DNA of 64,000 nucleotides from Candidatus Multivoradales bacterium (GTDB taxonomy: Bacteria; Acidobacteriota; Thermoanaerobaculia; Multivoradales; JAHEKO01). Where the stretch lies: positions 768,001 to 832,000 of the forward strand of contig CBDFIJ010000004.1 of the NCBI GenBank assembly GCA_965248055.1. The letters run 5' to 3'. Numbering within the stretch: the stretch's first letter is position 1; the number at the start of each line of letters is the position of its first letter. A model generated the notes under the pieces. That model was not told the DNA's origin. It searched no databases and was given only the letters and a program-made list of their open reading frames with translations. Positions 36,837 to 63,402 of this stretch are shown here, in pieces. The translations under genes were made by a program, and so were the position numbers.

Positions 36837-36842
36837 GTGCCA

Positions 36843-38144
36843 GATGAGATGAGTCGGTCGGTCTCCAAGCTGGGACAATGTGCCAGTTTGGATCAACCAA
36901 AGAAATCGGCATCTAGCCGAGAAAGGAGACCGACCATGGAGTATCTTGGCATTGACGTTCACTCAAAGTACAGCGAGGTATGTGGGATATCTCAGGAGGG
37001 TGAGGTGACGGTTCGTCGTCGGATTTCGACGACGGAGACGTCGATCCGTGGGTTCTTCGGTTCTCGTGAGCGTGCACAAGTGACGCTGGAGAGCGGTCCG
37101 GTGACGCCGTGGGTATATCGGTTGCTGTGTGATCTAGGTCATGCGGTAACGGTAGTCAATCCCCGGCGAGTGCGTTTGATTGCCGAATCGACACTAAAGA
37201 CCGACGGCATTGATGCCGAGGTTTTAGCTCGGCTGAGCCGATTAGACCTGGGGTTTCTGCGTCCGGTGTATCAGCGAAGCCCTGAGGCCCAGGAGCTTCG
37301 CACTCGTTTACGGGTGCGATCGGCTCTGGTTAAGTCTCGGACTTCGTTGATCAACGCGGTACGTGGGACTCTGCGTGCTCAGGGCTACCGGATGCCTTCG
37401 TGTGCAGCCAAGATTTTCATGGTGCGTTACGAATCGATGGGATTCGATTCGGGAGTATCAGAGGCCCTGGCTCCCTTGGTATCGACGATCGGTGAGCTGT
37501 CGGATCGGATCTGTGAGCTAGAGAATGACCTGAAAGCTCAAGCAAGTACCGATGAGCTTCTCGTTCGTCTGCAGACAGTGCCCGGGGTAGGGCCTCTGGT
37601 GAGCTTGGCTTTTGCCGGCTGGGTAGACAATCCAGATCGGTTTCAAAAGAGTCGAGATGTTGGAGCATGCCTGGGCTTGAGGCCCTCGCTTCGCAGCTCA
37701 GGAGGGCATGAGATCCGTGGCCGGATCACTCGGGAGGGGGATAGCGAGATGCGCCGACTCCTGGTCCAGGCTGCGCATGCATCTTTACAGTGTCACAAGG
37801 ACTCAGCGCTCAAGCGCTGGGGTGAGGGTTTGGTGGCAAGGCTAGGTAAGAGCAAAGCAGTGGTAGCGCTGGCTAGAAAGATCGGAGTCCTACTGCATAG
37901 GTTGTGGGTCACAAACGAGAATTTCCAGCCGTTTCCACAAGCCACATAAGCGAGGATTCGAAGTAAGAAAGCAAGAGAAATCAGTCATGAGTTTCAAAGG
38001 ACGGATGAAAAGTTTCGATGACTCCGATAAATGGGTTGGAGGCTGGGACTCCGCGTGCCAGATGGGAGCATCGAATTTCCTCAACAGACGGAAAACCCTA
38101 TCTGCCAACGTAGCTGAGACACTTGGCCCCCTGATAATTAGAGG
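36843..38144 (+). mobile_element. IS110-family element with about 190-nt non-coding right end; boundaries approximate
   Basis: Transposase plus non-coding flanks, lying between two unrelated gene fragments. Confidence 0.7.
36936..37949 (+). CDS. IS110-family transposase/recombinase
   Basis: DEDD motifs GIDVH, LESG, KTDGIDA; VPGVGP; GLRPS.RSSG (catalytic Ser); LARK. Confidence 0.95.
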   Translation: MEYLGIDVHSKYSEVCGISQEGEVTVRRRISTTETSIRGFFGSRERAQVTLESGPVTPWVYRLLCDLGHAVTVVNPRRVRLIAESTLKTDGIDAEVLARLSRLDLGFLRPVYQRSPEAQELRTRLRVRSALVKSRTSLINAVRGTLRAQGYRMPSCAAKIFMVRYESMGFDSGVSEALAPLVSTIGELSDRICELENDLKAQASTDELLVRLQTVPGVGPLVSLAFAGWVDNPDRFQKSRDVGACLGLRPSLRSSGGHEIRGRITREGDSEMRRLLVQAAHASLQCHKDSALKRWGEGLVARLGKSKAVVALARKIGVLLHRLWVTNENFQPFPQAT

Positions 38145-38449
38145 GCGGAAGGACTTCTGCCGCTCGTTTTTCCGCTGGTACAACACCCAGCACCGTCACG
38201 CCGGCATCGCCATGCTGACACCCGAAGATGTCCACTACGGCAAGGCCGACCACAAGCTCAAGATCCGTCAACTGGCCCTCGATAAAGCCTGGCGAAACAA
38301 CCCGCAGCGCTTTGTCCGAGGAAGACCGACCATTCAGCTATTACCGAGGGCCGTCTGGATCAACCCACCCAAACATCAGCGCACCAAGGAGGTTGTCCCG
38401 ATTCACTAATTAATTCTGCCAACTGTCTCAAAGTTGTTGACAGGTTCCG
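38145..38449 (+). mobile_element. IS3-family transposase C-terminal fragment and right end
   Basis: FFRWYNTQHRHAGIAMLTPEDVHYG...PQRFVRG...VWINPP; terminal TGTCTCAAAGTTGTTGACAGGTTCCG. Confidence 0.8.
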
Positions 38450-39046
38450 GGTTTCGCCGAAGCGCGCACTCATCTGTGGGATCGACACACGGGAAATCAT
38501 CGTCTGCAAGGAGAGACCGCCGACGGCCAGAGCTACCTGGTGCTGCATAGTCTTGCCGACCAAGGCCAGGGCGCGGGCCAGGTGTTCATCGACGGCTCGC
38601 CCGAAGAAGCTGAGGACGTCAAAGCTAAGTTCTTGACTAGAGCCTACGGTGCTTGGGTCAACGACACCTACTGGTTATTGATGCCCTACAAACTGCTTGA
38701 CCCCGGCGTCGAATTGCAAGACCTCGGCACGGTCACCCTCGACGGCCACCACTACACCAAACTCGGTCTCAGTTTCGGCAGTGTAGGACTCACTCCAGGA
38801 GACCGCTACTGGGCATATGTCGATCAAACCAGCAACTTGGTCACCCGGTGGCAGTACATCCTTGAAAACCAAGATCCAGACTCAGCGCCCACCACTTGGA
38901 CTTGGGGCAACTGGCAACGCCACGGCCAGGTGTTGCTCTCCGACACTCGCACAGAACTCAGCGGCGACGGTGCAGGTCGCGTGCTGAGTCTGGCTCCGAT
39001 CCAGGTTCTAGACACTGTTGACCCTTCGCTCTTTGAGGCCCCCTAA
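38450..39046 (+). pseudogene. 5'-truncated exported protein (DUF6503-like), paralogous in style to the next gene
   Basis: Frame stays open back to the IS3 end (GFAEARTHLWDRHTG...); NDTYWLLMPYKLLDPGV, VGLTPGDRYW. Confidence 0.65.
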
Positions 39047-42706: not shown

Positions 42707-43840
42707 TTAGATCTTGATCACGAGGTTCCGTCTGTAGAGTAGCGCCATTGCCCCCCACCACAACCCCAGGTAGCACAGCGCATAGGCGAGGGAGGCATTG
42801 ACGGGTGACAGCCACCCAGCAAAAAAACTCTGGTAGAGCCACGATTGAGCATTGCCGCTCGCGAACTCGGTGCGCAGCAGGTTCGCCAACAAGCTGGAGA
42901 AAACATAAGCCGCCAGTGGATTGACACCAAAGACGATCGCTGGCTTCGCCCACCGAGGCAGACCACGAACGTCGATTAACCAATAGCAAACGGCCAGAAC
43001 TATCAGAGCCACTCCCGCAGTGAACAACACATAGGAACTGGTCCATAAGTTCTTGTTGATCGGAAAAACGGCTCCCCACGCCATACCCAGAACCGTCGCC
43101 ACCACCCCAGCACCCAACATCCCGGTTGCTATTTGCGACCGTTCTCGCCCGGAACGAATCCAGTCGCCAGTAAACACGCCCAGCAAGGTGGTTGCCACTG
43201 CTGGAAAGGTACTGACCAAGCCTTCTGGATCCCACGTGCCTCGGTGCATCGCTCCCAACACCAAGAAACGATCCAACCAAGAGGCAAAATTGCCCTCTGG
43301 CGTCAGGACACCAGGACCTACGTTGGGCACCGGAACCCACTTCATCAGCGCCCAATAGCCAAGAAGCAATCCGGCGGTGATCCATATTTGGGTTCGCTTG
43401 GTGGTCCTGAGCAAGATTAACGAGACCACCAGATAGACGATCGCGATCCGCTGCAAGACTCCGACGATTCGCAGATGGGCGAAATCGAACTTTGGAAACA
43501 GGGCCAGCAGCAACCCAAGAGCAAAGATCACTGCGGCGCGCCGTAGGATCTTGCGGTAGAGAGCTGTGTTCGTCGCTGCCGGTACTGCTGCCGTTCCTAC
43601 TCCTCTCGATTGAGGTGAGTCCCTATATCGAGCCAGTGAAAACGTCATCGCCACCCCAACGATGAACAAGAAGAATGGAAAAACCAGATCGGTTGGCGTC
43701 CATCCATGCCACGTCGCGTGCAGCAATGGCGCATACACATGATTCCAACTGCCGGGGTTGTTGACCAGAATCATCCCGGCAATGGTCAGCCCTCGAAAAG
43801 CGTCGAGAGAAGCCAAACGGTCGGTGGAGCTCGATTTCAT
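42707..43840 (-). CDS. HGSNAT/DUF5009-like membrane acyltransferase
   Basis: SLDAFRG..IAGMILVNNPG, DLVFPFFLF, GVLQRI, DPEG, INKNLWTSSY. Confidence 0.9.
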   Translation of the reverse strand: MKSSSTDRLASLDAFRGLTIAGMILVNNPGSWNHVYAPLLHATWHGWTPTDLVFPFFLFIVGVAMTFSLARYRDSPQSRGVGTAAVPAATNTALYRKILRRAAVIFALGLLLALFPKFDFAHLRIVGVLQRIAIVYLVVSLILLRTTKRTQIWITAGLLLGYWALMKWVPVPNVGPGVLTPEGNFASWLDRFLVLGAMHRGTWDPEGLVSTFPAVATTLLGVFTGDWIRSGRERSQIATGMLGAGVVATVLGMAWGAVFPINKNLWTSSYVLFTAGVALIVLAVCYWLIDVRGLPRWAKPAIVFGVNPLAAYVFSSLLANLLRTEFASGNAQSWLYQSFFAGWLSPVNASLAYALCYLGLWWGAMALLYRRNLVIKI

Positions 43841-43984
43841 AACTTGGTGCAAGCGATTCGTCTACGGTACGTGGCGCACGCTACAACACCAAGAGTTCGT
43901 AAATTGGTAGTGCCTTTACCCCCTCCTCCCCTTGCCCTAAAATCTCATCCCCGCGGAACCCTCCGCACCGGAGACCTCCCCCGG

Positions 43985-44060
43985 GCCGACGTAGCTCAGT
44001 TGGTAGAGCAATTGATTCGTAATCAATAGGTCAGCGGTTCAAATCCGCTCGTCGGCTCCA
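43985..44060 (+). tRNA. tRNA-Thr (anticodon CGT)
   Basis: GCCGACG acceptor stem, ATTGA-TT-CGT-AA-TCAAT anticodon arm, GTTCAA T-loop, CCA. Confidence 0.97.
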
Positions 44061-44142: not shown

Positions 44143-44254
44143 TGGAGTTGACTCCCAATTTAGTGGACACCCAGTTTAGCTCTCATTAAGCGAGAGTGGT
44201 TTGTTTGCCAACCGCTGCAGAATCAGCAAGTCGGGATTCATAGGCGACAGGACT
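44143..44254 (-). mobile_element. IS3-family right-end remnant
   Basis: Minus strand reads SPVAYESRL...TTLA* and is followed by an IR-like end (TGGAGTTGACTCCCAATTTAGTGGACACCC on +). Confidence 0.55.
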
Positions 44255-44526: not shown

Positions 44527-46353
44527 TTATCGACCGGTCGGTTTGCGCCTGGTCGTCTTTGTGCTCCGAGTTTTCTTTTTGGCGGTGCTGGGCTTTCTCG
44601 TGGTGGATTTTCGCGCCGCAGATTTCGCCGTTTTGGTTGACCGGCTCTTCGCGCTGGTTTTGGAGCTAGCGCTAGTCTTCGACGTAGCCTTGGTCTTGGG
44701 CGCGGTTTTTTTCTTCGTCTTGGCCTGTGCTTTGGGCTTAGTCTTTGATTTGGCCTTGGTCTTAGATTTTGCGGAGGGGCTACTAGTTGTCGCCAACGCC
44801 GGTATTCTCTCCGATCCACCAAAGCCATCAACGATGAGATAGTCGAAGTAGTCCAGTTCGCAGTTCATCCGCCCGGCGAATTTCTGCCATTCCGCGCTCG
44901 AAACAGATTGGGGCTTCCGCGGTTCGTCTTCGTCGGTTTGAAAAATACGGCCCTGGGTTTTCTCTTCCAGCGCAGTTCGTATCGACGGCAAGGGGTGGCG
45001 CCAGGGAGGGGTGTTCTTAGTCATGGCCCATTCGTTAACCGCGGGTACCATGGCAGTGAATTCTGAAGCGTACTGGTCTTGCCCCATCCAAGACAGATTG
45101 GCGTAGTCATCGTCTGGGGTCCCATTTAAAGTCGCGTTGTGGCTGCCATGGTGACCGACCTTGTAGAGCACGGTACGCCCGAGTAGGTCTCGTGTCTTGT
45201 CTTGGTCACCGTCTTTCCACGGACAGTCGCTCCACGAGATCCAGTTACCACGCTGAGCGTCACCAACAAACAGCAGCACCTTGTTGGACTTCGGAAGTTC
45301 AAAGGCTAGGACCAAACTGGTGTTATTGATTCCTCTATTGAGCTTCAGTGCCAGGCTTTCGGCGGAGTAAAGCCACTCATCATCGATACGGCGCCAAGAC
45401 ACTCCGTCTGCCACCTCTTCGCTCTGCAACTCACCACTCTCCAACTCATCGGGATCAGCAACAGCACTCTCCGAACCGTAGTAGCGCGCGAAGAATTCAT
45501 CTTGCAGTCCCCCCCCAGGCGGGAGCTGAAATGGGCGACCAAACGGGGACCTTGGCAGAGTCTGATTCTCGGTCTCTTTGACTGCGGCCGAAAACGACAG
45601 GCCGTGGGAATCGGTATCGGAGAATCCTTCGTCTCCTACCGGGTCTTCGTCGGTTAAGAGGTCTTCACTTTTGGGCGGCCCTAAGACATAGGCCTTGATG
45701 CCTTCGGTCCCTCGTACTTTTTCAATTCTCCCCGGTTCCAAATACTCGACCCCTTGGTTCAGGGACGCCTTATCTTTGACCAGTTTGATCGCTTGCTTGT
45801 TGGTCGACTTGCTCGGTTCCGTGGCGGCGAGAATCATTTCAGCCTGATCGAAGCCATCACTCTCGCCCCCGAGTTCAAGATTCAGTAGGCTGTCGAGCCG
45901 ACCTATCTCCGGCGTGTCAGCGCCCACTACGTTAGCGAGTTGAAGACGGGCGTTGATCAGCCCGAGTAGCTGGTCGCGATGGCGGATGCGCAGCTCAATG
46001 GCGAGCTGGTCGGTCGGACTCTCAGTCCACGCCAGCCACGCCTGCTCGATGACAAAGTCTTTGAAATAAGGGTCGTTTTTCTTCCAGATGCCGTTTACAT
46101 GGTCTTGGTGTTCGTGGGTAATGACCATCAAATCCAATCGAAATCCAGTCGCTTCGCCGATGTGATTGACGATCTCTTGGATCTTGGTTCCGTGGACGAA
46201 GTTCTGCGAGCCGGGTTTGAGGCCACAATCAATCAAAACGTACACCGGTTTTCCACCGCCCTGGCGGGGAAAGGCGAGTAAGAAACAATCGCCGTGACCC
46301 TGTCGATACATGCGAACGGTCACTCCGTTCTCAACCGCTTCAAGCCTGGGCAT
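44527..46353 (-). CDS. MBL-fold metallo-hydrolase (ComEC/Rec2-like) with Lys/Ser/Thr-rich histone-like C-terminal tail
   Basis: GHGDCFLL, IDCG, THEHQDH, NNTSLVL, GDAQ, KVGHHGSHNAT; about 85-aa basic tail. Confidence 0.88.
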   Translation of the reverse strand: MPRLEAVENGVTVRMYRQGHGDCFLLAFPRQGGGKPVYVLIDCGLKPGSQNFVHGTKIQEIVNHIGEATGFRLDLMVITHEHQDHVNGIWKKNDPYFKDFVIEQAWLAWTESPTDQLAIELRIRHRDQLLGLINARLQLANVVGADTPEIGRLDSLLNLELGGESDGFDQAEMILAATEPSKSTNKQAIKLVKDKASLNQGVEYLEPGRIEKVRGTEGIKAYVLGPPKSEDLLTDEDPVGDEGFSDTDSHGLSFSAAVKETENQTLPRSPFGRPFQLPPGGGLQDEFFARYYGSESAVADPDELESGELQSEEVADGVSWRRIDDEWLYSAESLALKLNRGINNTSLVLAFELPKSNKVLLFVGDAQRGNWISWSDCPWKDGDQDKTRDLLGRTVLYKVGHHGSHNATLNGTPDDDYANLSWMGQDQYASEFTAMVPAVNEWAMTKNTPPWRHPLPSIRTALEEKTQGRIFQTDEDEPRKPQSVSSAEWQKFAGRMNCELDYFDYLIVDGFGGSERIPALATTSSPSAKSKTKAKSKTKPKAQAKTKKKTAPKTKATSKTSASSKTSAKSRSTKTAKSAARKSTTRKPSTAKKKTRSTKTTRRKPTGR

Positions 46354-46355
46354 CG

Positions 46356-48440
46356 CTACACCTCCTCCAGGTCATGCAGCAAAGCAAACGGCTCGCTTCT
46401 CATACCGTGCCGCTGAACGCCAAAGCGATCAGCTACTCCAGCATCAAATGCGTTGGCCGTGGCATTCCCTTCGCCTAAGCGAAATCGCCGAACCCGTTCT
46501 AGCTGCTTGTCATCAGCGACATCACCGACCGTTCTCATCACTCGACGAACCTGTTGGCTGGAAGGGTCGATGAGAAGGGTACACCCCGCTCGATACTTAA
46601 AGTCAGGTTTGTCGTTTTCAAGTGGAATCTCACCACCATCAATGGCTCGTTGCTTCTTACGATCAAAATACCCCCGCCGCCGCTGGGTGATCTCAACCAC
46701 CAAGTGGGTTCTTGGACCCCCGTAAGCGGTACGGCGAATTGCCGGTCGTACCGAATGCACTTCAATCGTTGGCTCCAGGCCGCCGCCGTAGTCCTTCGAA
46801 TAGACGGTCGGGGGAACGCCGCCAGGGTGATCCGCACCTACCAAACCAAAAGCCTTCGAATATGCACGTCCATAACTGTCTCCGCCCTCGCGCAACCATC
46901 GCCATAGGGCTGCTGAGACCTTGTCCATCCGCTGCCAGACCTCGAACCGATTGCTTCCCCGTGTCCAGTCCAAGCCTTCCTGCGACAAAAATCCTTTCCT
47001 AAATGACGACTTGCCGCGCTGGAGATGCTTAGTGAGGTCTGCTTCGGTGGTTGTTCGTTGATGTTCAAGCGCCGCCATACGCTCGTCACCAGTAGGCCAA
47101 GCCAACGCGTCCTGCCCCATGCAAGTCACGCCTCGAGGATGTATCCCCCACTCGCGAAAACTTTCAATAAAAACCACTCGGTAGCCATGTTGATCTGCTG
47201 GGTCAGAGTCCAAATCTGCAGTCACGATCCCTCTCAAGAAATCACCGAAGGTGATATCGACCGGGGGGCAATAGTCGATCGCTCGAATACACATCTGTAA
47301 TACACGGTCGGCAGATTCGGCCCCCTCAATCGCGAGACGACGGATCAGATCTGGGTGGAGATCGCCTTCTGGGAGTACTCCGGTACCGTTGGTGGCAATG
47401 CGGAATAGATCAGCGGTACGAGCTCGATAGATCAGAAGAAAGGCGCTAAAAACTGCTGCAACCAGAACCGCCCCGCGAGCATGGGGGCCACGGGTTCTCT
47501 CAAGCTTGTGGGGGTCTGGGGTAGCAGGCTGCCAAACACCAGTTTGCTTGTCTTCAGCTCCCAACGCGTCGCGCAGCGCCGAGCCCCGACCGGTGGCGCG
47601 GCCAAACTGCTGCGCCAACTGGCTGAGGAGGTTTTCGCTGTCGAGATCTCCCTGAGTCCGGCGGATCTGACTCTCCAGTACGCTCGGATAGGAGAAATGC
47701 TGAAACAAAGCGACAATATCGGCAAACGCCTCATGGAAAGCATGTACGTCTGGATTGGTTGGCTCGTTAAAACGTGGATGGACACCATCGAGCAAAGCGT
47801 GGGTCACCTCGTGGGCAATGATGTCGTGCGAAAGACAGGTGAATACCAAAGTCCCTGGGGTGTTGTACTTATCCTTGGTGGCCACCGGGAAGTAGCCGAA
47901 TAGAAGTGCCTTCTTGCTCGGGCTGTAGTAGGCGTTGCGATCCCGCAATGCGTGGGGATAGATCCTAAGCCGCCTGACAAATTGAACGACATATCCTTGT
48001 TCCTTAGTCCAGGTCCAATGGTCTGCCCAAAACGCGACCCGGCCCAAAGCACGCTCAAACTGCTGGATGGTCCGCATCGCCACTGCGTACACCATCTGCT
48101 GATGAAACTGCGGATTGGACTCCGAAGGAGTCAGGCCGTCCTGGGCCAAGAGATGACCATCATTGAGGTCAACCGGGTGATAGAAAACTCCGCTAGCGGG
48201 ATCGTGATCAACCACCTCGAGGTACTCGCCCACCGGGCCAGGCTGAAGCCCTGGTTCCCACGGCATCTCGAGCGTAATCTGGTTGAATTCGCAAGTATCC
48301 AATCGGGTTGCAAGGCTCGGATCGAAAGAAAACGATCGCAAGCGCCTCGATACTGGGGGTACCACTGGAGGCTGCATGGTTTGTTTAGCCCCTGGTCTTT
48401 CAGTCGATAGCATCACTCTTGGACCTCCCTGACCAGCCAC
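46356..48440 (-). CDS. M4-like gluzincin metallopeptidase, no obvious signal peptide
   Basis: NAYYS, DIIAHEVTH (HExxH), HEAFAD (third ligand Glu), GPHARG. Confidence 0.85.
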   Translation of the reverse strand: MAGQGGPRVMLSTERPGAKQTMQPPVVPPVSRRLRSFSFDPSLATRLDTCEFNQITLEMPWEPGLQPGPVGEYLEVVDHDPASGVFYHPVDLNDGHLLAQDGLTPSESNPQFHQQMVYAVAMRTIQQFERALGRVAFWADHWTWTKEQGYVVQFVRRLRIYPHALRDRNAYYSPSKKALLFGYFPVATKDKYNTPGTLVFTCLSHDIIAHEVTHALLDGVHPRFNEPTNPDVHAFHEAFADIVALFQHFSYPSVLESQIRRTQGDLDSENLLSQLAQQFGRATGRGSALRDALGAEDKQTGVWQPATPDPHKLERTRGPHARGAVLVAAVFSAFLLIYRARTADLFRIATNGTGVLPEGDLHPDLIRRLAIEGAESADRVLQMCIRAIDYCPPVDITFGDFLRGIVTADLDSDPADQHGYRVVFIESFREWGIHPRGVTCMGQDALAWPTGDERMAALEHQRTTTEADLTKHLQRGKSSFRKGFLSQEGLDWTRGSNRFEVWQRMDKVSAALWRWLREGGDSYGRAYSKAFGLVGADHPGGVPPTVYSKDYGGGLEPTIEVHSVRPAIRRTAYGGPRTHLVVEITQRRRGYFDRKKQRAIDGGEIPLENDKPDFKYRAGCTLLIDPSSQQVRRVMRTVGDVADDKQLERVRRFRLGEGNATANAFDAGVADRFGVQRHGMRSEPFALLHDLEEV

Positions 48441-50234
48441 TCAACGTGCAGCGGCAATTGCATCCCTGACACTCTTCGGCAAATCAAAACCTTCTGGTAA
48501 GCCCTCTATTCCCTGAAGATATTGGTCGAAATCGCTCACCGAGGCTAAGTACCGAAGAAGGTTTTTCGGGCGGTAAGGAACGAACTTAGCGTCAGATTCA
48601 CCCCATTGAGGTGATTCCGCCGCAAGTCGCACTAAGACAGACGGATGTATCGCAAGCCCAGCCGGTTCGGATTCGGAGAGCTTGCGCACCCCCTTTCCGT
48701 TGCGCAAGGTCAGCGTTTGAATCACTCGCCAATGTAATTTGTCGGACTTGTAGAGCCGACCATACGGATTCGGGTCGTAATGTTTGAGATACTCCCAGTC
48801 AATTCCCAGTCCCTGACCTCGCGCTTCCGTCAACAACCATCTGAGCGCCGTATTGGCTAAACCATCATTAACATAGCCGCCACCGACATTGGTGTGGACT
48901 CCTGCAAACCATCTTTGCTTCAGGGTCTGGCGACCATTAGCGGACGAGCGTTTCTGCCAGATTCGCGGGCAAAAATCTGCCCTGCGTTCATCAATCGCCA
49001 AGGCCTGGCGGGCATTTCTTACCCCGGCAGGGACTTCGACTCCGACGTGCACCCGCTCACGACGTTTGCCAATCGACAACACCGTGTCCCATAGGCCTAA
49101 GAAGTCCACCGGAGCCGGATTTATGTCGCCCACAATTTCGAGAGCCTGTTGCTTCGCCTTGTCTGGAGATTTCCCTTCCTTCAAGCGGCGGGCTATGCGT
49201 TCATCCAATATATTTTTCCGCGCTTTTCCACCGCTTATCTTGCCGTTTAAGAATTCATCGAAGTAGCGAGGAATCCAATAGGAATCCTCGGCAGGCAGCA
49301 CTCCACCCATCCAATCAATGAATCGCGCCAAACCTCTTGCCGAACTTGCCCCGCGGCTGAATTCAAACAAATAAATCTCGTCGCCGGGCCGGAAATTGAG
49401 AGACAGAAAGGTATACGCATCCTCAACGTTGCCCTCAAACCCTGCGCCCGCGGCACCGCCAAATAACTTGTCAATCGTCCGGTGAACTCGGTTTGAAAAT
49501 CCGGGGAACTTACGCAATGCGCCGACCCCGATGTCGTAGTAAGCAATTTGAGGTATTCCACGACTCGGATCAAGACCGCGTTGTCGGTAAACGCCTGCGA
49601 TCTGCTGCTTGTCAACCCAGAATCCCGACTCCAGAACATCTGCGACAACCGGCAAGCGGCCTATTCCCTGAGGGGTGACGAAAATTTCCATAGCCCGCTG
49701 ATCGCCGCCAACTGCTCGCGCTCGTACCGTGGGATGCGGGGTCGTACTCGCGGCATAGTGGTTCTTACTCGGACCTTCGGTGTTGATCGCCTGACGAAGG
49801 TTCTTGAGCGTCCGCACCATCTCTTCACCCGGGTCGTCTGAGGGATTTGGTGAGGCGATTTGAACATGCCCATCAACATCCGTGAGCTGCTCTTGAAAAG
49901 TGAAGACCTTGCCGTCAATAGTCACCGTCTCCCCAACTTGCGGTTGCCCGGTAAGAACAAGGGTGGCCGTGGTGTCATCCAGCTCCTTGACCGCTCGACA
50001 GGCTTTCAGCACATTACTTGGTTTGAGCACCAAGTCGCCGTCATCCCGCTCCTTCTGCTTGGCCGGATTGCTCCAAGTTCCATCCATACAAATAACGATG
50101 TGCTTAGGACTCGTCGGTGCTACGTCTGGGTCGGGCTGGGCGGACACTGGATTGGATTCGGTCATCATAATCAGGCCTCCGATGAGCAAGCAAAATAGCG
50201 CTCGATGGGTTTCTGCATATGTTCTCAAGCTCAC
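48441..50234 (-). CDS. DUF2235/Tle1-like alpha/beta-hydrolase with signal peptide and an inserted domain
   Basis: ICMDGTW, SNV, YYDIGVG, FSRG, LWDTV, ALAIDERR, WFAGVHTNVGGG. Confidence 0.88.
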   Translation of the reverse strand: MSLRTYAETHRALFCLLIGGLIMMTESNPVSAQPDPDVAPTSPKHIVICMDGTWSNPAKQKERDDGDLVLKPSNVLKACRAVKELDDTTATLVLTGQPQVGETVTIDGKVFTFQEQLTDVDGHVQIASPNPSDDPGEEMVRTLKNLRQAINTEGPSKNHYAASTTPHPTVRARAVGGDQRAMEIFVTPQGIGRLPVVADVLESGFWVDKQQIAGVYRQRGLDPSRGIPQIAYYDIGVGALRKFPGFSNRVHRTIDKLFGGAAGAGFEGNVEDAYTFLSLNFRPGDEIYLFEFSRGASSARGLARFIDWMGGVLPAEDSYWIPRYFDEFLNGKISGGKARKNILDERIARRLKEGKSPDKAKQQALEIVGDINPAPVDFLGLWDTVLSIGKRRERVHVGVEVPAGVRNARQALAIDERRADFCPRIWQKRSSANGRQTLKQRWFAGVHTNVGGGYVNDGLANTALRWLLTEARGQGLGIDWEYLKHYDPNPYGRLYKSDKLHWRVIQTLTLRNGKGVRKLSESEPAGLAIHPSVLVRLAAESPQWGESDAKFVPYRPKNLLRYLASVSDFDQYLQGIEGLPEGFDLPKSVRDAIAAAR

Positions 50235-50240
50235 TTCGGC

Positions 50241-51022
50241 CTACACCCCCGCGGCCTTCACCGCCTCGATAAAGAGCCTAGCCACCTTCTTCGCCCCACT
50301 CGCGCCTGGGTGAATCTCGTCTTTCCAGTCACGGGGTTCCAAAGTATTTCTGGTTTCAACACGAACCAATCTACCAACGCCGCGGGGCTCAGCAGCCACC
50401 ACATCGATCGCATCGACCAAGCATCGATCAAGAAGCGAATTACCTCTTGTTGTATCGCTTGGGGAATACTGCGTTGTTTGAAATATGGGGCCATCCAAGG
50501 GCCCGCAACCTTGACCCCAAGCAATTTGACCGGCTTGTTGGAAGGAATCGCGTAATCATACGAATTGGCGAAGACCTTCGCTTGCTGGCCGGCGTCAGAC
50601 ATCATGTCCAACAATTCCCGGTAGCAATCTTGAATCTGGCGCACGCGGCGCTCGTAGCGCGAAAACGCGACCACATCTTGGGGGCTCATTCCCCATTGGA
50701 AAGGTCTCAGCAGCGGTAACAGATCTGGACCAACGATGTCGTTGCCTCCTGCAGAGAAGAGCAAAGCATCCAATTTCCAACGCAATAACCGCTTGCGCAG
50801 CTTGCTTCGTTGCCCGCCGGACATGATCGTCATGATCTCGTCTCCAGCCTTTTCAAGACGTAGCAGCGACCATGCCCGCTGGGAACCTCCAACTTGATCC
50901 AACTTCCCGATTACATTGGCATAGGAGAACCAGGAATCACCTTCGCTATGAACCACCGGCCAACTTGGATGATCCTTCCGGCAGCGCTCAAAATCGCCAA
51001 TGTAGTGTCTCTTGTACGCCAC
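50241..51022 (-). CDS. SGNH/GDSL hydrolase; apparent 1-nt frameshift near 50420
   Basis: Block I EGDSWF and block III SAGGND in ORF 50258..51022; block V WKDEIHP in ORF 50241..50498. Confidence 0.8.
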
Positions 51023-51092
51023 TCTGTACTCCTTTCAAAAAACCATCCCTTTATTGTCTTGCTCAGTCCGCCGCGATAAGACTCGGTAACGG

Positions 51093-53477
51093 CTAAACCG
51101 TGACATCCACCTCTCCTCGGTGAAAGCGGATCGAGGTGTCGACCATCAGCGGGTCTGCGAGCAGTGCCAACATCAGAAACTTGGCGTCCACCGGCTTGGT
51201 TGATAAGGCACCTGCCGTAGCCCTTATCGTGCGGGCCATATCTCGTAGCTCCTTACTCACATCTTTCACCGAGCTACCATCCAATAGCGCCTTGCGAGCG
51301 CTCTTAAACGCCTGGATGAACAGGTATCCCTCGCGAAGGTAAACCCAAACGAAACGGTGAGCACCGGCTTCCAGCCGCACCCCCGGTGGTGCGCTAGCCC
51401 AAAAAGTCTTGAACCCATCAGGCCTGCCACGTTCCACCTGCTCGATCGCATCCCAGGTGACCAGATTGGAAAGCGAGGTGTTGGACTGGCCAACGTCCAT
51501 ATCCAAGTAACGCAATGCCAGTTTGAAGGTGCTCCACAACCTGGTGCGCAGCTCGTCTTTGGTCAACCGTTCGTCAGCCAGAAATGCCTTTCTTAACGCG
51601 TGCTGGGAGAAACCAATCCGCAAGTCGTAGGAATAGTCCCCAGGTTGATTGAGCAGCGCCTTCTCCAGAGCGTCACGGTCGACCTCAGTAAGCCTCCCAA
51701 GTGCTTCGGCACCTCCGAGGTGCAGCGGCATCATCCTGCCAATGGCCTTGTGCTTCAGGCTTGCACTCCTGGTGATCGTCGCCTTACGTCCTTCGAGTCG
51801 ATCCACCGGCGTAGCATGGCTTGAGTCCACCACGGCTCCAGCGATCTCAAACACAGCCATCGCGTTTCTAACCTGACCTTTGTAGGTCGAAAACAATTTC
51901 GCCCCGGACTCTCCAACCAACCAAGTGGTGCCAGCAACCAGATCCGACTCGACTTTAGTCTGTTTCCAACTAGTCATTTCCCGAGTGACTTTGAAGCCAA
52001 ACAGATTCAGTTCCAAGCCGAAAGAACGCTCCGCACGGGCCAGTTTCTTCAGCGTTCCGCCAATAATCTCCACCCCGGTATTGCCGTTTTTTGCGGCGGC
52101 CTTTTCCAGCGCCGGGGCGAAGTTACCGCGCACCGCCGCGAGGTAAGCATCTTGCGTGCGGTTGAGATCAAAGACCAAATCCAGCAGTGCGTCTTGCTGT
52201 TGGGTGCGGTTGATCTCCGCTGAGAACTCAGCTGTGAGACCTTCTTTGACTCGACTGGTAACAGACTCGGAAACTTGTCTGCGGATCTTGCTGTAAGCAT
52301 CGAGCCAACCATCAATCGCGTCATCGATCGCATCCAACTGACCGATGTCGGCTAAATCGGCAATTCCCTGCTCCAGCCGCTCCTGGATCCCAGTCACAGA
52401 ACCGAGGAGTGACTCCGCCTTGTCGATCAACGCACCAACTTCTTGCCCATGGGCAGGAGACAACCCACCCACCGCTTGGGAGATTGCCTGCAAGTCCGAC
52501 AGTTCCATAGCCCTAACAGCCTTTCCAGCCGCTTTGGCTAAGGCGCTTTTCGCCCCAGCCGATAACTTGCCAAGATCACTACGCAGATCAGAGAGTTCTT
52601 TTTTCACGCCTTCGATCTGAGCCACCGCACCGTCCGGTAGCCGAAGCATTTTCTGGAGGCTAGCGGTGACAAATTCTTCAGGGTTGCCGATGTCGAGTTC
52701 TGCTCTTAGATCGAGGCCAGCACTCACAAATGAGCTCTTCGCCTTGTGCAGCCGGACGCGCACCAGATTGCTCGACGGCTCTGTTTCAGTCGGTCGACTT
52801 ACAACCACCCGGAGAACCCCTCGCAGATCGGCCAGAAAGGTAACTCCCAGGGTCACACCAGCGTCAACCGTGACCGGTGCTTCTACTTGAAGGCTGTCAA
52901 ATGCCTTTCCCGATAGTTCGCGGGTCATTCCGTACTGCCAGGCACCATGGGCGCGCAGAATTGCGTTTCCATCGAACTCAAATTGCAAGATGTCAGTATC
53001 TGCCAGGGATCGCACTCGGTCCAAATCGCTCGGGAACGTCAGATCACCGACCAAGCCGACGACAGCGTTCACCCCTTTCTGAGCCTGGCTAACTTGTCGA
53101 TGATGAGCTAACCGAATTTGCACCCCTCCCGTGGCTCCAGCCGAGATCTCTCCACCCTGAATCGCCTCGCTAGCGTTGAAGCCAGCCACCGCTCCTCCCT
53201 GGATCAAGATCGTCGCGAAAGCAACACTCTTCTCGGCCGGATCACCTGAAAATTCAAGATCGAGGGGTGGCACTGCCGCCTTGGTTATGTGAGCACTCAC
53301 CTCCGCCGCTCCAGTGAGCCGCCCGACACCTAGATCGGTCAATAGCCCATCCGCACTCTTTCGCCACGACAGCTTCTTTTTCCACGCTGATTTTTGGAAA
53401 GTTCGAATCGGGGCCTGCAGTGACTGCAGCGCCTGGAGCGCTTTTTTCGATTTTGCAATAAATCCGTTCTTATCCAT
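51093..53477 (-). CDS. Large hypothetical protein (794 aa): beta-rich N- and C-regions around a long helical/coiled-coil core
   Basis: Long ORF; GGAG SD before (GTG)ATG 53477; no family recognised. Confidence 0.8.
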   Translation of the reverse strand: MDKNGFIAKSKKALQALQSLQAPIRTFQKSAWKKKLSWRKSADGLLTDLGVGRLTGAAEVSAHITKAAVPPLDLEFSGDPAEKSVAFATILIQGGAVAGFNASEAIQGGEISAGATGGVQIRLAHHRQVSQAQKGVNAVVGLVGDLTFPSDLDRVRSLADTDILQFEFDGNAILRAHGAWQYGMTRELSGKAFDSLQVEAPVTVDAGVTLGVTFLADLRGVLRVVVSRPTETEPSSNLVRVRLHKAKSSFVSAGLDLRAELDIGNPEEFVTASLQKMLRLPDGAVAQIEGVKKELSDLRSDLGKLSAGAKSALAKAAGKAVRAMELSDLQAISQAVGGLSPAHGQEVGALIDKAESLLGSVTGIQERLEQGIADLADIGQLDAIDDAIDGWLDAYSKIRRQVSESVTSRVKEGLTAEFSAEINRTQQQDALLDLVFDLNRTQDAYLAAVRGNFAPALEKAAAKNGNTGVEIIGGTLKKLARAERSFGLELNLFGFKVTREMTSWKQTKVESDLVAGTTWLVGESGAKLFSTYKGQVRNAMAVFEIAGAVVDSSHATPVDRLEGRKATITRSASLKHKAIGRMMPLHLGGAEALGRLTEVDRDALEKALLNQPGDYSYDLRIGFSQHALRKAFLADERLTKDELRTRLWSTFKLALRYLDMDVGQSNTSLSNLVTWDAIEQVERGRPDGFKTFWASAPPGVRLEAGAHRFVWVYLREGYLFIQAFKSARKALLDGSSVKDVSKELRDMARTIRATAGALSTKPVDAKFLMLALLADPLMVDTSIRFHRGEVDVTV

Positions 53478-54121
53478 CACCCTGTTCTCCGTATGATGCA
53501 GTTCATAGATTCCGCCACAAGATGACGCCGCCACCTCCACGTAGGCGACCACCGATCTCGGCGTCTCTCGCCACCGCAGTCGTGATAAAAAAACGGGTAG
53601 ATGCTCTACTCGACAATCGAGCAACGTTTTGTTCTTGACAAGCCATAGTCAATCTACCTGCTTGGGAAAGTCGAGCCCACACCAAACAAAGGCTTTTCCT
53701 TCCAATGCAGTCTTCCGGGACCAGGAAACCCATCCCCAGTAAGACCTACTGTCCAAAAGCTGGTTGATAATACCACGAGACCCGTTCGTCGCAGCTCGCG
53801 ACCTCCTTGCTCTCTTCGATGACAAGCCGATGAACCAGCGTCGATCACGCTGACGCCTACCGCCGCATCCAACAATTTCAAGGTCAGCGTCACCACACAC
53901 TGTCAGCCCCGAAAACGGCCGCCAAGGGCGGCCTGCCTCTTCGATGGGTAAACTTCGCTCAGAGTCTGCGCGGTGCCATTGGAAAATTCGTGAGCCGGGT
54001 ACGGTGCCACCATCAAACGTTCCCCAACTCAGACCCAATTCCAGGACGCGGTACTTTGGAAGAGACTTCCAAGATAGGTACTTGCGCAGCCTGCACCCGG
54101 CAAGCCGCGAATTATTGTCCA

Positions 54122-54316
54122 CTATTCCTCTTCTGTCTCAAGTCCCTCGGCGTCCTTTTCACCTTGATCCCGAAGCCCCGCTGACTCCTCAATCATTTCC
54201 ACACCACGGACGTCGAGCACATCTGCCGCAACCGCCTGTGCCAGAAGGAAACTTTCGACAGCGCGCCCAACGTCTGTTGAGAAGTAGGATGAAACAATAG
54301 TCGAAGGTGGCGGCAT
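54122..54316 (-). CDS. Possible small acidic protein
   Basis: TAATG coupling to the upstream lipoprotein stop; no other support. Confidence 0.3.
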   Translation of the reverse strand: MPPPSTIVSSYFSTDVGRAVESFLLAQAVAADVLDVRGVEMIEESAGLRDQGEKDAEGLETEEE

Positions 54317-54906
54317 TAAGAATCGGGAACCCGCTCTCCTCGCTCACGAATCTCATCCTCAAACACACCTAATGGCAGCTCGATGATGGTCTCCAAACGA
54401 TCTTGGCCTTTGAGAGCGCTCATAGTCTCAGAGTTGATAACAGAGACAGGGGTTCCTGGCAGGATCCGATGAAGACGGAAGACAGTGTCTGCCAAGTCGG
54501 AGCTCTCAAGGGCGATCCCAGGGAGTTTGATCTTGACCACGGCGGACGCCTGGCTCTCAACGTGATGCGAGGCATCATCCTCGGGTGGCCCTCCAAAACT
54601 CCTTGCCTCGAACAACCCGTAAATCGCCTCGACACTCAAGATCTGGTCGCCGCGAGATACTTCCAACAGGTGATCACCTTTCGGCGCGTCGGAAACCAAC
54701 GCTGGGCCCGCCAACTCACTGGCGCTGATCAACTCAACATTTCCGTCGTTTGTAACCTGCAACACCAACTGGAGATGGACCTCAGCCCCTCGAATCTCCA
54801 CGTCGTCGGTTCTCTCGACTACATTCGAGGTTGGTTCAACGCCACCGACGCACGCGAGGGGAATCACAAACAACAGTGAGGCAATGAGCAAGGATTGAAC
54901 TGGCAT
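54316..54906 (-). CDS. Putative lipoprotein; paralogue of the C-domain of the upstream gene
   Basis: Hydrophobic leader ending PLA-C; FEARSFGG...HH motif shared with 54955..55845. Confidence 0.75.
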   Translation of the reverse strand: MPVQSLLIASLLFVIPLACVGGVEPTSNVVERTDDVEIRGAEVHLQLVLQVTNDGNVELISASELAGPALVSDAPKGDHLLEVSRGDQILSVEAIYGLFEARSFGGPPEDDASHHVESQASAVVKIKLPGIALESSDLADTVFRLHRILPGTPVSVINSETMSALKGQDRLETIIELPLGVFEDEIRERGERVPDS

Positions 54907-54954
54907 AACTGGTTGATTGACACCCCCCTATCGTGTGGAGGACACGAGACCAAT

Positions 54955-55845
54955 TCAGTGGTCGACTCGGACTCCCTTTTCGCGAACGTACCTAGCTATC
55001 TCCACGCCAGAAACTGAGGTTACCAACTCAAGACGACGCTCACTTCGAAGATTCTCCAGCGCAGACGCGCTGAAAGACTCTACCTCTGGACCCGACCTGA
55101 GTTGGTAAAGGTCAAGTTTCAGCGACCCAAGTTCACTATCTAGTGAGCGATTAGGGACACGCACGCTGACGGTCGCCTCGTCCAGTTCGATGAAGTGGTG
55201 CCCTTCGGTACTATCGGCACTTCCACCGAAACTGTGACCTTCAAACGGGTTACCTGGCAAGGCCTGTGTTCCTAGGACTGCTCCATCGTCACTCACTGCA
55301 AAGACAAAGTCACTCAAGGCCTGATCGGATTCCCCAGGAACACCGACTATCTCGGTCGCACTGAGGACCTCAGACTGGCCATCTTTCGAGATTCTAAGAA
55401 GCAATGTCAGATAAGGCTCGCCAGAGGTAGCCTCAGCGAATAGCTCTTGAGAATCGTCAAAGTCCTCTCGCGGTACCTGGTCAGCGCCTGATTCCTGCCC
55501 AGCCCCCAGTACCTGCTCAACTGGCATCTGGTCGTCGACTTCTTCTGAAGTCGACGCCGCAGCTCTCTCCATTGGTGACTCCGTCGCAGCCTCACGTTCC
55601 TGGTAGTCATCGCCCCTTACTTCGGGCTCGGAACCGCTACCTGGCATCGCTTGACCAGTGATTTCCTGCACTAATTCTTTCCCTTGACTCTTGCCATCTT
55701 TCGAGTGTTCACCTTGAGGCTTTCCGGCTCCAGAGTCCTGCGCCGATAGCAGGCCTACCGCGAGCGCTAGTAGACCTAGAGCAATCAGCGAAATAAGAGA
55801 TGCTCGGGCTCCTGTCTTCAATCTAGTTGTTGGAACAAAATTCAT
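54955..55845 (-). CDS. Exported hypothetical protein (acidic linker + shared beta-domain)
   Basis: AAGGAG SD, signal peptide ending LSA-Q, FEGHSFGG...GHH motif. Confidence 0.78.
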   Translation of the reverse strand: MNFVPTTRLKTGARASLISLIALGLLALAVGLLSAQDSGAGKPQGEHSKDGKSQGKELVQEITGQAMPGSGSEPEVRGDDYQEREAATESPMERAAASTSEEVDDQMPVEQVLGAGQESGADQVPREDFDDSQELFAEATSGEPYLTLLLRISKDGQSEVLSATEIVGVPGESDQALSDFVFAVSDDGAVLGTQALPGNPFEGHSFGGSADSTEGHHFIELDEATVSVRVPNRSLDSELGSLKLDLYQLRSGPEVESFSASALENLRSERRLELVTSVSGVEIARYVREKGVRVDH

Positions 55846-55886
55846 TGTTAGTCTCCTTATTGAGTAGTTCATCATCATCACCGTTC

Positions 55887-58106
55887 TTACGGCATACCCA
55901 ACTGCCACGGCTTGCTGTCGTGCAAAGGACTGTAGATCCATCGGTGGTAGTGGCGATCCATACGAAAACCGCTCGCAGAGCGTCGGATCATCCCAAACCA
56001 ATACTTGTTGCGAATAAAGATGTCCGCTTTGCCAGCTCCGCCCTCATAGTTGGCAGCGAGGATCTTGTCGCCAATACCAAGGTTCCAACCACCGGCACCT
56101 GGAATTCCGGTCACCCAGTCCTTCGACCAACTCCCGCTCAGCGCGGCACCTCCAGATGTCAGCGTGCCGAGGTACTCAGTGCTCCAGTTGACCTTTGGGT
56201 TGTACACGAACAGGTCTTCTCTGCCATCTTTGTTAGCGTCTGCGACAAAGTGTCGGTCTCCTTTCTTCATGTTCCAACCTGGAATATTAGGCGCCCAACC
56301 GGTCCCAGGATCGTCGTCATACCGCTTCGCGTAGTTCAGCGCGGTGCCCGTGGAACGCGTCAACTCCAGATACGCTCGAGACCAATCCAGACCATTGAAT
56401 ACGTAGAGGTCGTCCCGGCCATCACCATTGATGTCTGCTGGAAAGTGTCGGTCATTCTTGCCCATGTTCCATCCTGAAGCCAAAGTGTTGTGGTACAGCC
56501 GCACTCGACTCAACGCTGCACCCGACGACCTGAGCATGCCAAGATACTTGTGCGTCCCCCAGTTCACCGCGTTAAACACATAAAGATCTTCTTTACCGTT
56601 ACCATCAAAGTCGGCGACGTAGTACTTGTCGGCCTTACCCATCATCCAACCGGGAAACGAATCGTCATGGCGCTTCACCCCGGTTACCGAAGTCCCACCG
56701 GACCTGAGCAACCCCATATATTCCTTGTTCCAACTAGAGCCGCTATACAAGTACAAATCGTCCTTACCGTCGCCGTCGAAGTCAGCGGGGAACAGCTGAT
56801 CCTGTCCTCCGATATAGCCGTAACCCGGCAAAGTGGTCTTGTACCTGCGGACCGTTTCAAGTCCACTGCCCGTAGACCGCCACATGCCGACCCAACGATT
56901 GATCCAACTCGTAGTGTTGAGAACGTAAACATCGTCTTTGCCATCACCGTTGAAATCCGCAACGTGCAGTTTGTCGCCCCAAGAAAGGTGCCAACTTCCG
57001 GTTCGAATCCCAGCAGCTCGTGGCACTACATTGTTTGCCGTCCAAATACGATCAAGCCGTCTGGGACCAGTACCGGTCTGATAGAGCGCCAGATCTGGAC
57101 CGTTTTGCACCAAGACATCATCGCGACCATCGCCCGTGAAGTCTCCAATCACGGCATCATCGAAATCGTGCCCCAAGTTCGCGTACAGGTCCTGGCGCAT
57201 GAGTGTTTGGCATACCGGGCCAAAGTTGGGCGTATTGCCTCTCATCCTGCAGTTGTGCACTGGACGATATATGCCGGTAGTCTTGTACTTGCAACCGGCG
57301 AATTCTCCCACCGTACGGTTAGGATCGATACTAGGAGCAAGCGTAGTCGGAACCGGCGTTGCTGGACTGATAAAACGATTCCAAAATACCGTGTTTCGAT
57401 TCAAGACGCTGGAACAATTACGATTGTTGATGACCGCACCAGTGTAGGCACCGGGCCTAGTGTATTCGTCGAACAATCCACCGATACCGTGCCCCGCTTC
57501 ATGCCCAACAACCTGCCAACTGACGCTCTTGGTTTGAACGATATCTCTCGGGCCACGATTGCAGCCGCCAAATCCGGCGTTGTTCAAGATCACGATGATG
57601 TAGTCCGCGTGCGAAAGACTGTTCGCCGCTAAAACGGCATTCTTCAGCGTATTGGTAGTGCTGCCGGTATGCTCCAGCCAGCAATGGGACCAAGCACCGT
57701 TGAAGAGATACTTGAGCGCAGTGTTCTTGGCGTTGGTGCTAACAAGGACATCGTCACTCGAATCGTTCGGCGTACCATTGAGATTCCAAGTGCGAGTCCC
57801 AACACCGGACTCTGTGGACACCAAGTTCAAGCGATAGACATTAAATGCGTTTTGCATCTCAAGAAAAAAGTCGTTGCCAAAAATACCGTTGGTGACCATG
57901 TTTGCAACTTGCGTGTTGTATGCCGATTGCTCCCCGGCCGTGTAGCCATCACCCATCACTACCACTACCTTCTTACCGGCATCAGAGCCGTTGTTGATGA
58001 TCTTGGTACAGGTTGGTGCAGTGCAGGCGCCCCATGCTTGGCTGGCCGGGAACCCGACCGCCACTAGGACAACTAGCCATACTCGCCAGAACATAAATAT
58101 CTTCAT
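55887..58106 (-). CDS. Secreted M64-family (IgA-peptidase-like) metallopeptidase with FG-GAP/VCBS beta-propeller
   Basis: Signal peptide, MGDGYT, HEAGH..GLFDEY, NCRMR; six DxxGDGxDD-type repeats plus one degenerate. Confidence 0.88.
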   Translation of the reverse strand: MKIFMFWRVWLVVLVAVGFPASQAWGACTAPTCTKIINNGSDAGKKVVVVMGDGYTAGEQSAYNTQVANMVTNGIFGNDFFLEMQNAFNVYRLNLVSTESGVGTRTWNLNGTPNDSSDDVLVSTNAKNTALKYLFNGAWSHCWLEHTGSTTNTLKNAVLAANSLSHADYIIVILNNAGFGGCNRGPRDIVQTKSVSWQVVGHEAGHGIGGLFDEYTRPGAYTGAVINNRNCSSVLNRNTVFWNRFISPATPVPTTLAPSIDPNRTVGEFAGCKYKTTGIYRPVHNCRMRGNTPNFGPVCQTLMRQDLYANLGHDFDDAVIGDFTGDGRDDVLVQNGPDLALYQTGTGPRRLDRIWTANNVVPRAAGIRTGSWHLSWGDKLHVADFNGDGKDDVYVLNTTSWINRWVGMWRSTGSGLETVRRYKTTLPGYGYIGGQDQLFPADFDGDGKDDLYLYSGSSWNKEYMGLLRSGGTSVTGVKRHDDSFPGWMMGKADKYYVADFDGNGKEDLYVFNAVNWGTHKYLGMLRSSGAALSRVRLYHNTLASGWNMGKNDRHFPADINGDGRDDLYVFNGLDWSRAYLELTRSTGTALNYAKRYDDDPGTGWAPNIPGWNMKKGDRHFVADANKDGREDLFVYNPKVNWSTEYLGTLTSGGAALSGSWSKDWVTGIPGAGGWNLGIGDKILAANYEGGAGKADIFIRNKYWFGMIRRSASGFRMDRHYHRWIYSPLHDSKPWQLGMP

Positions 58107-58289
58107 CAGTCTTTCCTCCTTGGGCTTGGATCTGCGCTGGTACCTTGCGGAAAAGCCAGCGAAAATCCGTGCTAATGGGTCACGCATAGTAGAGATGCGT
58201 TTCTTCGCGGAGTTGTTTAGTCATATTTCCACTGTCACATCGTTCAGGCGCAATCATCGTGATTTCTTGAACTAGATACATCCCACACT

Positions 58290-63373: not shown

Positions 63374-63402
63374 AAAAAAGAGCGCTGCAACTCGCAGCAC
63401 CA
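63374..63402 (-). terminator. Intrinsic-terminator-like hairpin + U-tract; the intron's target site
   Basis: Minus strand GGTGCTGC-GAGTT-GCAGCGCT-CTTTTTT directly before the intron 5' end. Confidence 0.8.

Follow-up and report, generated by a model that had tools for sequence, protein, structure and literature searches.

A gluzincin metallopeptidase and a ComEC-like MBL-fold hydrolase form the conserved core of a candidate protease–effector cassette

Organization of the locus

The DNA analyzed here (the window) is a 64,000-nucleotide stretch of contig CBDFIJ010000004.1 (GenBank assembly GCA_965248055.1) from Candidatus Multivoradales bacterium, an acidobacteriote. Between positions 44527 and 53477 it contains five co-oriented ORFs on the minus strand, which an earlier note, made from the sequence alone, had proposed to act together as a protease-activated system. 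Three of them are of primary interest. They encode a ComEC-like metallo-β-lactamase (MBL)-fold hydrolase (44527–46353; 608 residues; assigned from its ORF, Pfam, PADLOC, and an AlphaFold2 (AF2) model searched with Foldseek); a predicted cytoplasmic, thermolysin-like zinc metallopeptidase of the gluzincin type, here named GLZ (46356–48440; approximately 675–694 residues; recognized by the motifs HEVTH and HEAFAD); and a DUF2235/Tle1-like α/β-hydrolase lipase (48441–50234; at most 597 residues; PF09994, 4.7e-59). Upstream of these lie an SGNH/GDSL-like hydrolase pseudogene (50241–51022) and a gene for a 794-residue protein of unknown function (51093–53477, in an ORF extending to 53624), both likewise on the minus strand. 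The conserved core of this arrangement is GLZ followed by MBL; the lipase is optional, and the SGNH pseudogene and the 794-residue gene, the latter belonging to a sporadic family, are neighbors rather than parts.

Intergenic distances of 70, 6, 0, and 2 nt had been given for the five genes. Three of these (70, 0, and 2 nt) hold as stated, and the 6-nt gap is obtained only by following the SGNH frameshift into the ORF at 50241–50498. A tRNA-Thr(cgt) gene, located by ARAGORN at 43985–44060 on the plus strand, lies 466 nt from the MBL stop codon, in agreement with the earlier estimate of about 470 bp; this flank is common to a genome of the same genus (G026, a sister species).

The GLZ peptidase

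The catalytic motifs read from the sequence in the earlier note are present in both core proteins: in GLZ, HEVTH begins at residue 210 and is followed by HEAFAD 23 residues downstream, and the MBL has THEHQDH and HHGS. HExxH, the downstream Glu, and further GLZ residues are invariant in 65 sequences, which is the signature of a gluzincin with Glu as the third zinc ligand. The window GLZ had no match in Pfam, NCBIfam, or PADLOC, nor in the PDB by sequence. When six relatives were compared with Pfam, three matched Peptidase_M4, of which only P0035 (26.7 bits) exceeded the 22.4-bit cut-off, and in the Atlas GLZ is found near M4/M36-like clusters, which is a lead only. Judged by its sequence, GLZ is a distinct, unnamed gluzincin family. 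A word-index search found at least 8000 member proteins, and hmmsearch against 1.84 billion representatives returned 1710 clusters (defined at 50% identity) at E ≤ 1e-30, 3835 at 1e-10, and 5290 at 1e-3, a large family to be without a name in every library searched. Neither GLZ nor the MBL has an obvious N-terminal hydrophobic signal, as judged by reading the sequences, with no predictor run.

The typical GLZ module comprises about 650 residues and is C-terminal in the longer forms of the protein. Relatives of about 1200 residues contain the whole module duplicated in tandem, both copies with an intact HExxH. The long homologs had been considered as possible GLZ–MBL fusions, an explanation rejected on finding these tandem duplications. 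Among the 120 longer GLZ proteins listed, 19 (P0156–P0174) have an N-terminal S8 subtilase domain joined to GLZ. One metagenomic protein of 2069 residues (P0123) combines a candidate STAND-type NTPase (AAA_16/NPHP3_N) with a tandem GLZ; it serves as a lead only, its own contig not having been recovered. The only PADLOC match among these longer forms is a weak one of the S8 part to "subtilase". Locus L114 (G020:C1, 9791–14742) holds a divergent GLZ relative, with a gene for a 1041-residue protein ending in a caspase domain (Peptidase_C14) upstream and an SGNH-like gene downstream; no MBL was detected at this locus.

The MBL protein

The window MBL matches Lactamase_B in Pfam (2e-4) and, in PADLOC, the LmuA-MBL (8e-15), RTasMBL (3e-8), and Avs1a (7.5e-5) models. 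The earlier note had expected no PADLOC hit; GLZ and the 794-residue protein gave none, and the MBL did. The aligned MBLs of related loci behave similarly: 61 of 61 match LmuA-MBL, 52 RTasMBL, 42 Avs1a, and 36 PDC-M48B. A link to Avs1-type MBLs, as suggested in the earlier note, is thus real at the level of sequence. The locus itself does not have the composition of an Avs1 system: no STAND gene lies next to the GLZ–MBL pair in the window, and the NCBIfam Avs1a model yields only 29.7 bits, with a cut-off of 420. In a sequence search of the PDB, the MBL had only weak N-terminal matches to MBL entries.

Seven residues are invariant in the family (H80, H82, D84, H85, D365, H401, and H402). Family members have about 500 residues. 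In the window MBL, residues 1–110 and 321–508 make up the core, and all members compared contain two inserts (111–207 and 227–321). In the AF2 model (mean pLDDT 79.4, pTM 0.78), the core and a four-helix insert (116–197) are predicted with confidence. A second, acidic insert (228–320; 22 Asp and Glu vs. 5 Lys and Arg) is of low confidence and includes a disordered stretch at 248–270. No cleavage motif was identified in the inserts. The additional length of the window protein includes a tail of 93 residues (516–608; window 44527–44820) that is rich in Lys, Thr, and Ser, with 35% Lys and Arg and no Asp or Glu, and is disordered at 526–604. Among 61 MBLs this basic tail is limited to the genus of the window, with a shorter version in the sister species; it could bind nucleic acid.

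The closest structural relative of the model in the PDB, as identified by Foldseek, is the MBL nuclease domain of ComEC (PDB entry 9ic4; E 4e-8, TM 0.69 normalized to the target). Far weaker matches follow, the next being phosphorylcholine esterase, then RNA-processing MBL nucleases and lactonases. Profile matches and the predicted fold together indicate that the window MBL is homologous to defense and ComEC-type MBL nucleases. The ComEC domain differs in being part of a membrane channel and in its length of about 266 residues; the aligned span, 473 columns against these 266 residues, indicates that the two inserts are missing from it. ComEC itself presumably shares the HHGS motif, and we know of no partner protease for it.

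Linkage and distribution of GLZ and MBL

Two sets of related loci were assembled. The first came from scanning genomes, one for each species, with an alignment as the query; this gave 549 relatives, from which 80 loci were kept. A single window protein used as the query found no related loci. Presence of the genes across these 80 loci was scored by tblastn with the five window proteins. The second set, of 75 loci, was seeded with a subtilisin–GLZ fusion. MBL comes immediately after GLZ in 74 of the 80 loci, and the remaining six are cut or short contigs. In the second set it is found downstream in 69 of 75 loci, and five of the six misses are cut contigs, leaving L139 unexplained. The arrangement is independent of the form that GLZ takes: MBL follows S8–GLZ in 28 of 32 loci (the four misses being cut contigs), tandem GLZ in 7 of 7, and single GLZ in 34 of 36 (L183 lies on a cut contig; at L139 there is no match in 2.2 kb of downstream sequence). 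A median of about 20 nt separates the GLZ stop codon from the first MBL codon that aligns.

Pairwise distances among GLZ proteins correlate with those among MBL proteins (r = 0.86; 0 of 999 Mantel permutations reach this value). This shows that the two genes are inherited as a unit, and fits co-evolution and shared history alike. Adjacency very strongly supports the functional pairing of protease and MBL that the earlier note had proposed. In a tree of 112 MBL sequences, from which partial or frame-broken matches were excluded, all 23 S8–GLZ-linked MBLs form one clade nested within the GLZ-linked radiation, the five linked to tandem GLZ form a separate clade, and the window MBL falls in a single-GLZ clade.

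The distribution of GLZ is patchy. It is present in 67 of 201 genomes of the window's order, some of which have multiple copies, and its best matches are scattered, with similarity scrambled across many phyla. Of 72,556 plasmids, 37 carry GLZ, and 21 of these are conjugative; in the phage collection GLZ relatives are nearly absent, with two weak records. A Hymenobacter plasmid encodes an AAA ATPase followed by GLZ and MBL, and a Deinococcus plasmid encodes an integrase, the GLZ–MBL pair, and a patatin in the opposed orientation. In a metagenome-assembled genome of the Gemmataceae, the pair is directly followed by a gene for a 920-residue protein (L002:13623–16382), the C-terminal part of which is a second defense-type MBL (RTasMBL, 5e-15), while the N-terminal 600 residues are unassigned.

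The lipase as an optional third gene

A lipase-type gene accompanies the pair in 22 of the 80 loci, namely patatin in 18, DUF2235 in 4, and phospholipase D (PLD) in 1, with L037 having two. The 24 lipase-type hits are all found no more than 3 kb from the pair, and the 696 kb of flanking sequence beyond that distance contain none (expected share 0.37, binomial p = 5e-11, a value to be read with the knowledge that related loci are not independent and that L051 is counted twice). DUF2235 also adjoins GLZ–MBL in six other genomes of the window's order, all of one family. Three of these have the gene order of the window and three have the lipase last; two are the contigs of L001 and L075. On plasmid pCMU01 of Methylorubrum extorquens CM4, DUF2235 precedes an "S8 family serine peptidase", which is an S8–GLZ fusion, and an "MBL fold metallo-hydrolase", and the trio lies among SIR2, AAA-ATPase, 3′-5′ exonuclease, and IS5 genes. 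The order in plasmid pRphaN671d of Rhizobium phaseoli is GLZ–MBL–patatin. Labels such as "S8 family peptidase" or "hypothetical protein" conceal the domain that is common to all of these forms. The DUF2235 lipase, named as a partner in the earlier note, is accordingly a recurrent one, present in 4 of 80 loci, six further genomes of the order, and the Methylorubrum plasmid.

The PF09994 match of the window lipase covers the DUF2235 catalytic domain. The protein belongs to a subfamily with a 130-residue insertion (approximately residues 90–220) and has EFSRGA in place of the GFSRGA motif, retaining the nucleophilic Ser. In the longest ORF a hydrophobic stretch precedes the lipase core, and alternative start codons remove it. 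No type VI secretion or immunity family was found among the scanned window neighbors or among 113 neighbors of related loci.

The same genome encodes a DUF2235 paralog that is 54–56% identical to the window lipase and has the same 130-residue insertion. At its locus (C4:2635485–2640694; L117:3486–8695), DUF2235 is followed by a different MBL (514 residues; PADLOC LmuA, 2e-11) and a DUF6119 protein (494 residues). This trio is kept in the sister species (MBL 86%, DUF6119 72%) and may be another lipase–MBL conflict module. Alignment of the GLZ-linked MBL family with this second MBL by hhalign was confined to the N-terminal motif region (83% probability).

Comparison with known protease–MBL systems

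ComEC-like MBLs encoded beside trypsin-like or caspase proteases have recently been described as pro-nucleases, in which insertions block the active site until two specific cuts by the partner protease free a DNase, leading to abortive infection (PMC12799240; bioRxiv 10.1101/2025.09.03.673762; bioRxiv 10.1101/2025.11.14.688446). Trypsin–MBL modules occur in Hachiman (HamM), AVAST Avs1/Avs2, Lamassu, and DRT systems (Tuck et al., Science 2025, PMC12799240; Huang et al., bioRxiv 10.1101/2025.09.03.673762), and LmuA-MBL, RTasMBL, and Avs1a systems carry the nuclease–protease pair (PMC12799240). Three protease-associated MBL clades have been defined, with trypsin, caspase, and S8 subtilisin, and a protease-activated α/β-hydrolase zymogen has been demonstrated (Evans et al., bioRxiv 10.1101/2025.11.14.688446). 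A radiation of gated nucleases with "other diverse protease families" has also been noted (PMC12799240). A metalloprotease partner is not mentioned in the main texts of the three reports (PMC12799240; bioRxiv 10.1101/2025.09.03.673762; bioRxiv 10.1101/2025.11.14.688446), a statement that extends to neither their figures nor their supplements, and our literature searches found no description of a metalloprotease–MBL defense module. The view of the earlier note that no system of this composition had been characterized needs qualification to this extent: protease–MBL zymogen modules with trypsin, caspase, or subtilisin were published in 2025, and none with a metalloprotease was found.

As in the trypsin–MBL modules, the MBL of the GLZ–MBL pair is ComEC-like, contains insertions, and is encoded beside a protease with which it co-evolves. 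PADLOC models built for those modules match the MBL family, in the case of the window MBL over the N-terminal 100 residues or so, and one of the insertions is predicted to be disordered; the gated nucleases, too, have disordered insertions, which lie over the active site. In contrast to the serine proteases of those systems, GLZ is a thermolysin-like metallopeptidase, and its single forms lack a fused HamA, STAND, or LmuA sensor. GLZ-linked MBLs are further distinguished by their size of about 500 residues, with a double insert of about 210 residues that includes the four-helix element, and by the lipase gene that is often present. The Canu system (CanABC) shares a nuclease gene downstream of a stand-alone protease gene, variable loci, and dual insertions proposed as gates; however, its protease, a caspase, includes an Ig-like domain, and CanB is an additional partner (PMC12799240).

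A further comparison is with the S8-associated Clade 3 of Evans et al. S8–GLZ fusions are followed by an MBL of the same family in 28 of 32 loci, and these loci may be the published subtilisin clade. The window GLZ differs in lacking an S8 domain, and the main text of Evans et al. makes no mention of a GLZ module. If S8–GLZ–MBL loci do correspond to Clade 3, an unrecognized gluzincin would be what that clade shares with the forms without S8, which are far more numerous.

A candidate metalloprotease-gated pro-nuclease module

On balance, we favor the interpretation that the genes at 44527–50234 represent a copy of a protease–effector cassette that is widespread, has spread horizontally, and would act as a metalloprotease-gated pro-nuclease module. 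Adjacency and co-divergence of GLZ and MBL, homology and fold of the MBL, the invariant motifs, the fusions, the linkage of lipases, mobility, and patchiness all point in this direction. According to this model, the MBL would be made as an inactive pro-nuclease. Upon a stress or infection signal, GLZ would cut the MBL insertions, and the DNase so released would cause arrest or death of the cell. The signal might be sensed by the C-terminal region of GLZ itself (about 250 residues) or, elsewhere, by the fused domains, whether a second GLZ, a subtilisin, or a STAND NTPase. The phospholipase (DUF2235 here, patatin or PLD elsewhere) would be a facultative second effector or a helper, and processing of the DUF2235 lipase by GLZ is conceivable. 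A more specific and decidedly more tentative proposal is that of a death module in which one thermolysin-like protease licenses both a ComEC-like pro-DNase and, where present, a membrane phospholipase. Such a module would be dual-effector and apparently sensor-less (self-sensing), and might be the core, so far hidden, that members of the subtilisin-associated MBL clade have in common.

It was not until 2025 that licensing of MBL nucleases by proteolysis was established, with serine and cysteine proteases; were the favored interpretation correct, a zinc metalloprotease would be a fourth class of protease partner. The occasional presence of a lipase suggests that effectors of two kinds may be under the control of a single protease. 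With the cassette present in culturable rhizobia and Methylorubrum and on Hymenobacter and Deinococcus plasmids, these ideas are directly testable.

Several observations weigh against a conflict module. PADLOC (1e-6) matches only 4 of 112 immediate neighbors of related loci, the 2107-residue ORF of L064 being excluded from this count, and by Pfam the immediate neighbors (113 analyzed) are mostly metabolic or housekeeping genes. The near absence of GLZ relatives from the phage collection points the same way. Similarity of the window MBL to the PADLOC models spans no more than its N-terminal 100 residues or so. The window GLZ and the other single-GLZ forms have no sensor domain recognizable in library scans, and the protease gene comes first in GLZ–MBL, unlike in the trypsin–MBL modules. 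Finally, within the genus the pair looks vertically inherited. An HGSNAT-like gene, tRNA-Thr, MBL (74%), and GLZ (75–76%) are syntenic between the window and G026, where the sequence corresponding to window positions 42735–44060 lies beside the GLZ–MBL pair, and the identity of the pair (about 75%) is comparable to that of the flanking gene (72%). Upstream of GLZ the two genomes do not match, and G026 keeps only GLZ and MBL at the tRNA-Thr flank.

The best-surviving alternative, although one we consider unlikely, is that GLZ and MBL work side by side in housekeeping or stress turnover, for instance in starvation or, with the lipase, in remodeling of envelope lipids, with neither a zymogen step nor a role in conflict. 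It would account for the metabolic character of the neighbors and the scarcity of PADLOC matches among them, and for the conserved synteny in the sister species, where the pair has kept its place beside tRNA-Thr and the HGSNAT-like gene and has diverged about as much as the flanking gene. Also in keeping with such a function are the recurrence of lipid hydrolases as partners and the presence of phosphorylcholine esterase and lactonases among the MBL's lower-ranking fold matches. It fits poorly, however, with a patchy, multi-copy distribution (67 of 201 genomes) and similarity scrambled across phyla, with carriage of GLZ on plasmids, with its fusion to S8 and (in the P0123 lead) to a STAND NTPase, and with ComEC and defense MBLs being the best fold and profile matches.

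The proposal of the earlier note that all five genes form one protease-activated system, with the 794-residue protein and/or the SGNH hydrolase as further substrates or effectors, now appears very improbable. Co-orientation and short gaps are in its favor. The SGNH gene, rather than being a system member, is a frameshifted pseudogene, and tblastn detected it in 0 of the 80 loci. The frame is lost near 50414, with the main ORF at 50258–51022 and the second ORF (50241–50498) in another frame. Strong homologs listed align only to about residue 203, and two weak matches reach 215; the alignment of the G026 homolog runs in frame −1 up to residue 208 and continues in frame −3 for residues 209–265, which include the DEIHP block, so that the DxxH block is out of frame. 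Because independently assembled contigs of four sequencing runs reproduce positions 50100–51100 with 0 differences, the gene is broken in the DNA itself; these runs are of one sample, possibly the source of the assembly. Members of the SGNH family occur widely in the order, in 54 of 201 genomes. SGNH genes do adjoin divergent GLZ relatives in two genomes, as an SGNH–GLZ–MBL trio in G145 and after the GLZ relative in G020, which hints, if weakly, that enzymes of this kind can be recruited as well.

The 794-residue protein, described in the earlier note as an orphan, has full-length homologs in 4 of 200 other genomes of the order and so does not deserve that label. It has no match in Pfam, NCBIfam, or PADLOC, and in the Atlas its homologs form unnamed clusters only, Acidobacteriota being the commonest phylum. 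Homologs were found near the other four genes in 0 of the 80 loci; in the four other genomes the gene stands alone, with unrelated neighbors (0 of 4 loci). The sister species, too, has GLZ and MBL only, and the five-gene unit is largely refuted by lack of co-occurrence. What endures of the original protease-plus-effector logic is the protease–MBL(–lipase) part, GLZ–MBL co-occurring across genomes with DUF2235 as an optional addition.

We give very little credence to a scheme of exported antibacterial effectors, with GLZ or MBL as co-effectors or immunity factors: lipase toxins of secretion systems belong to the DUF2235, patatin, and PLD families (the Pfam name of PF09994 agrees), which recur as partners here, and the hydrophobic stretch of the longest lipase ORF might suggest export, but alternative starts remove that stretch, GLZ and MBL show no obvious signal of their own, and 0 of 113 immediate neighbors belong to a secretion-system Pfam family.

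Other features of the window

An IS3 remnant had been reported beside the genes. A 96-nt end fragment of an IS3-type element is indeed present at 44159–44254 (no strand assigned), with 77–83% identity to five sites in the genome, three of which are ends of IS copies with HTH_Tnp_1 and rve ORFs; no remnant of a transposase ORF was found within the window. A second stretch considered as an IS3 remnant, 53630–54315, was rejected, being single copy and without a Pfam match in five frames.

Other repeated sequences lie elsewhere in the window. A 1.26-kb element at 36836–38096 has three further copies in the genome that are 99.9% identical, and next to it (38093–38452) are pieces of 58 nt and about 296 nt with matches in many of the IS copies found outside this region of the genome. 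At 61580–62968, on the minus strand, is an ORF for a group II intron reverse transcriptase/maturase (RVT_1, 3e-44; GIIM, 2e-23), and the adjoining segment (62933–63386) has one further genome copy at 98% identity. Two adjacent minus-strand genes at 54316–56001 encode proteins of 196 and 348 residues, which belong to no Pfam family and have in common a C-terminal domain of about 160 residues (29% identity); they are located just upstream of a gene for an M64-like peptidase with FG-GAP repeats (55887–58187).

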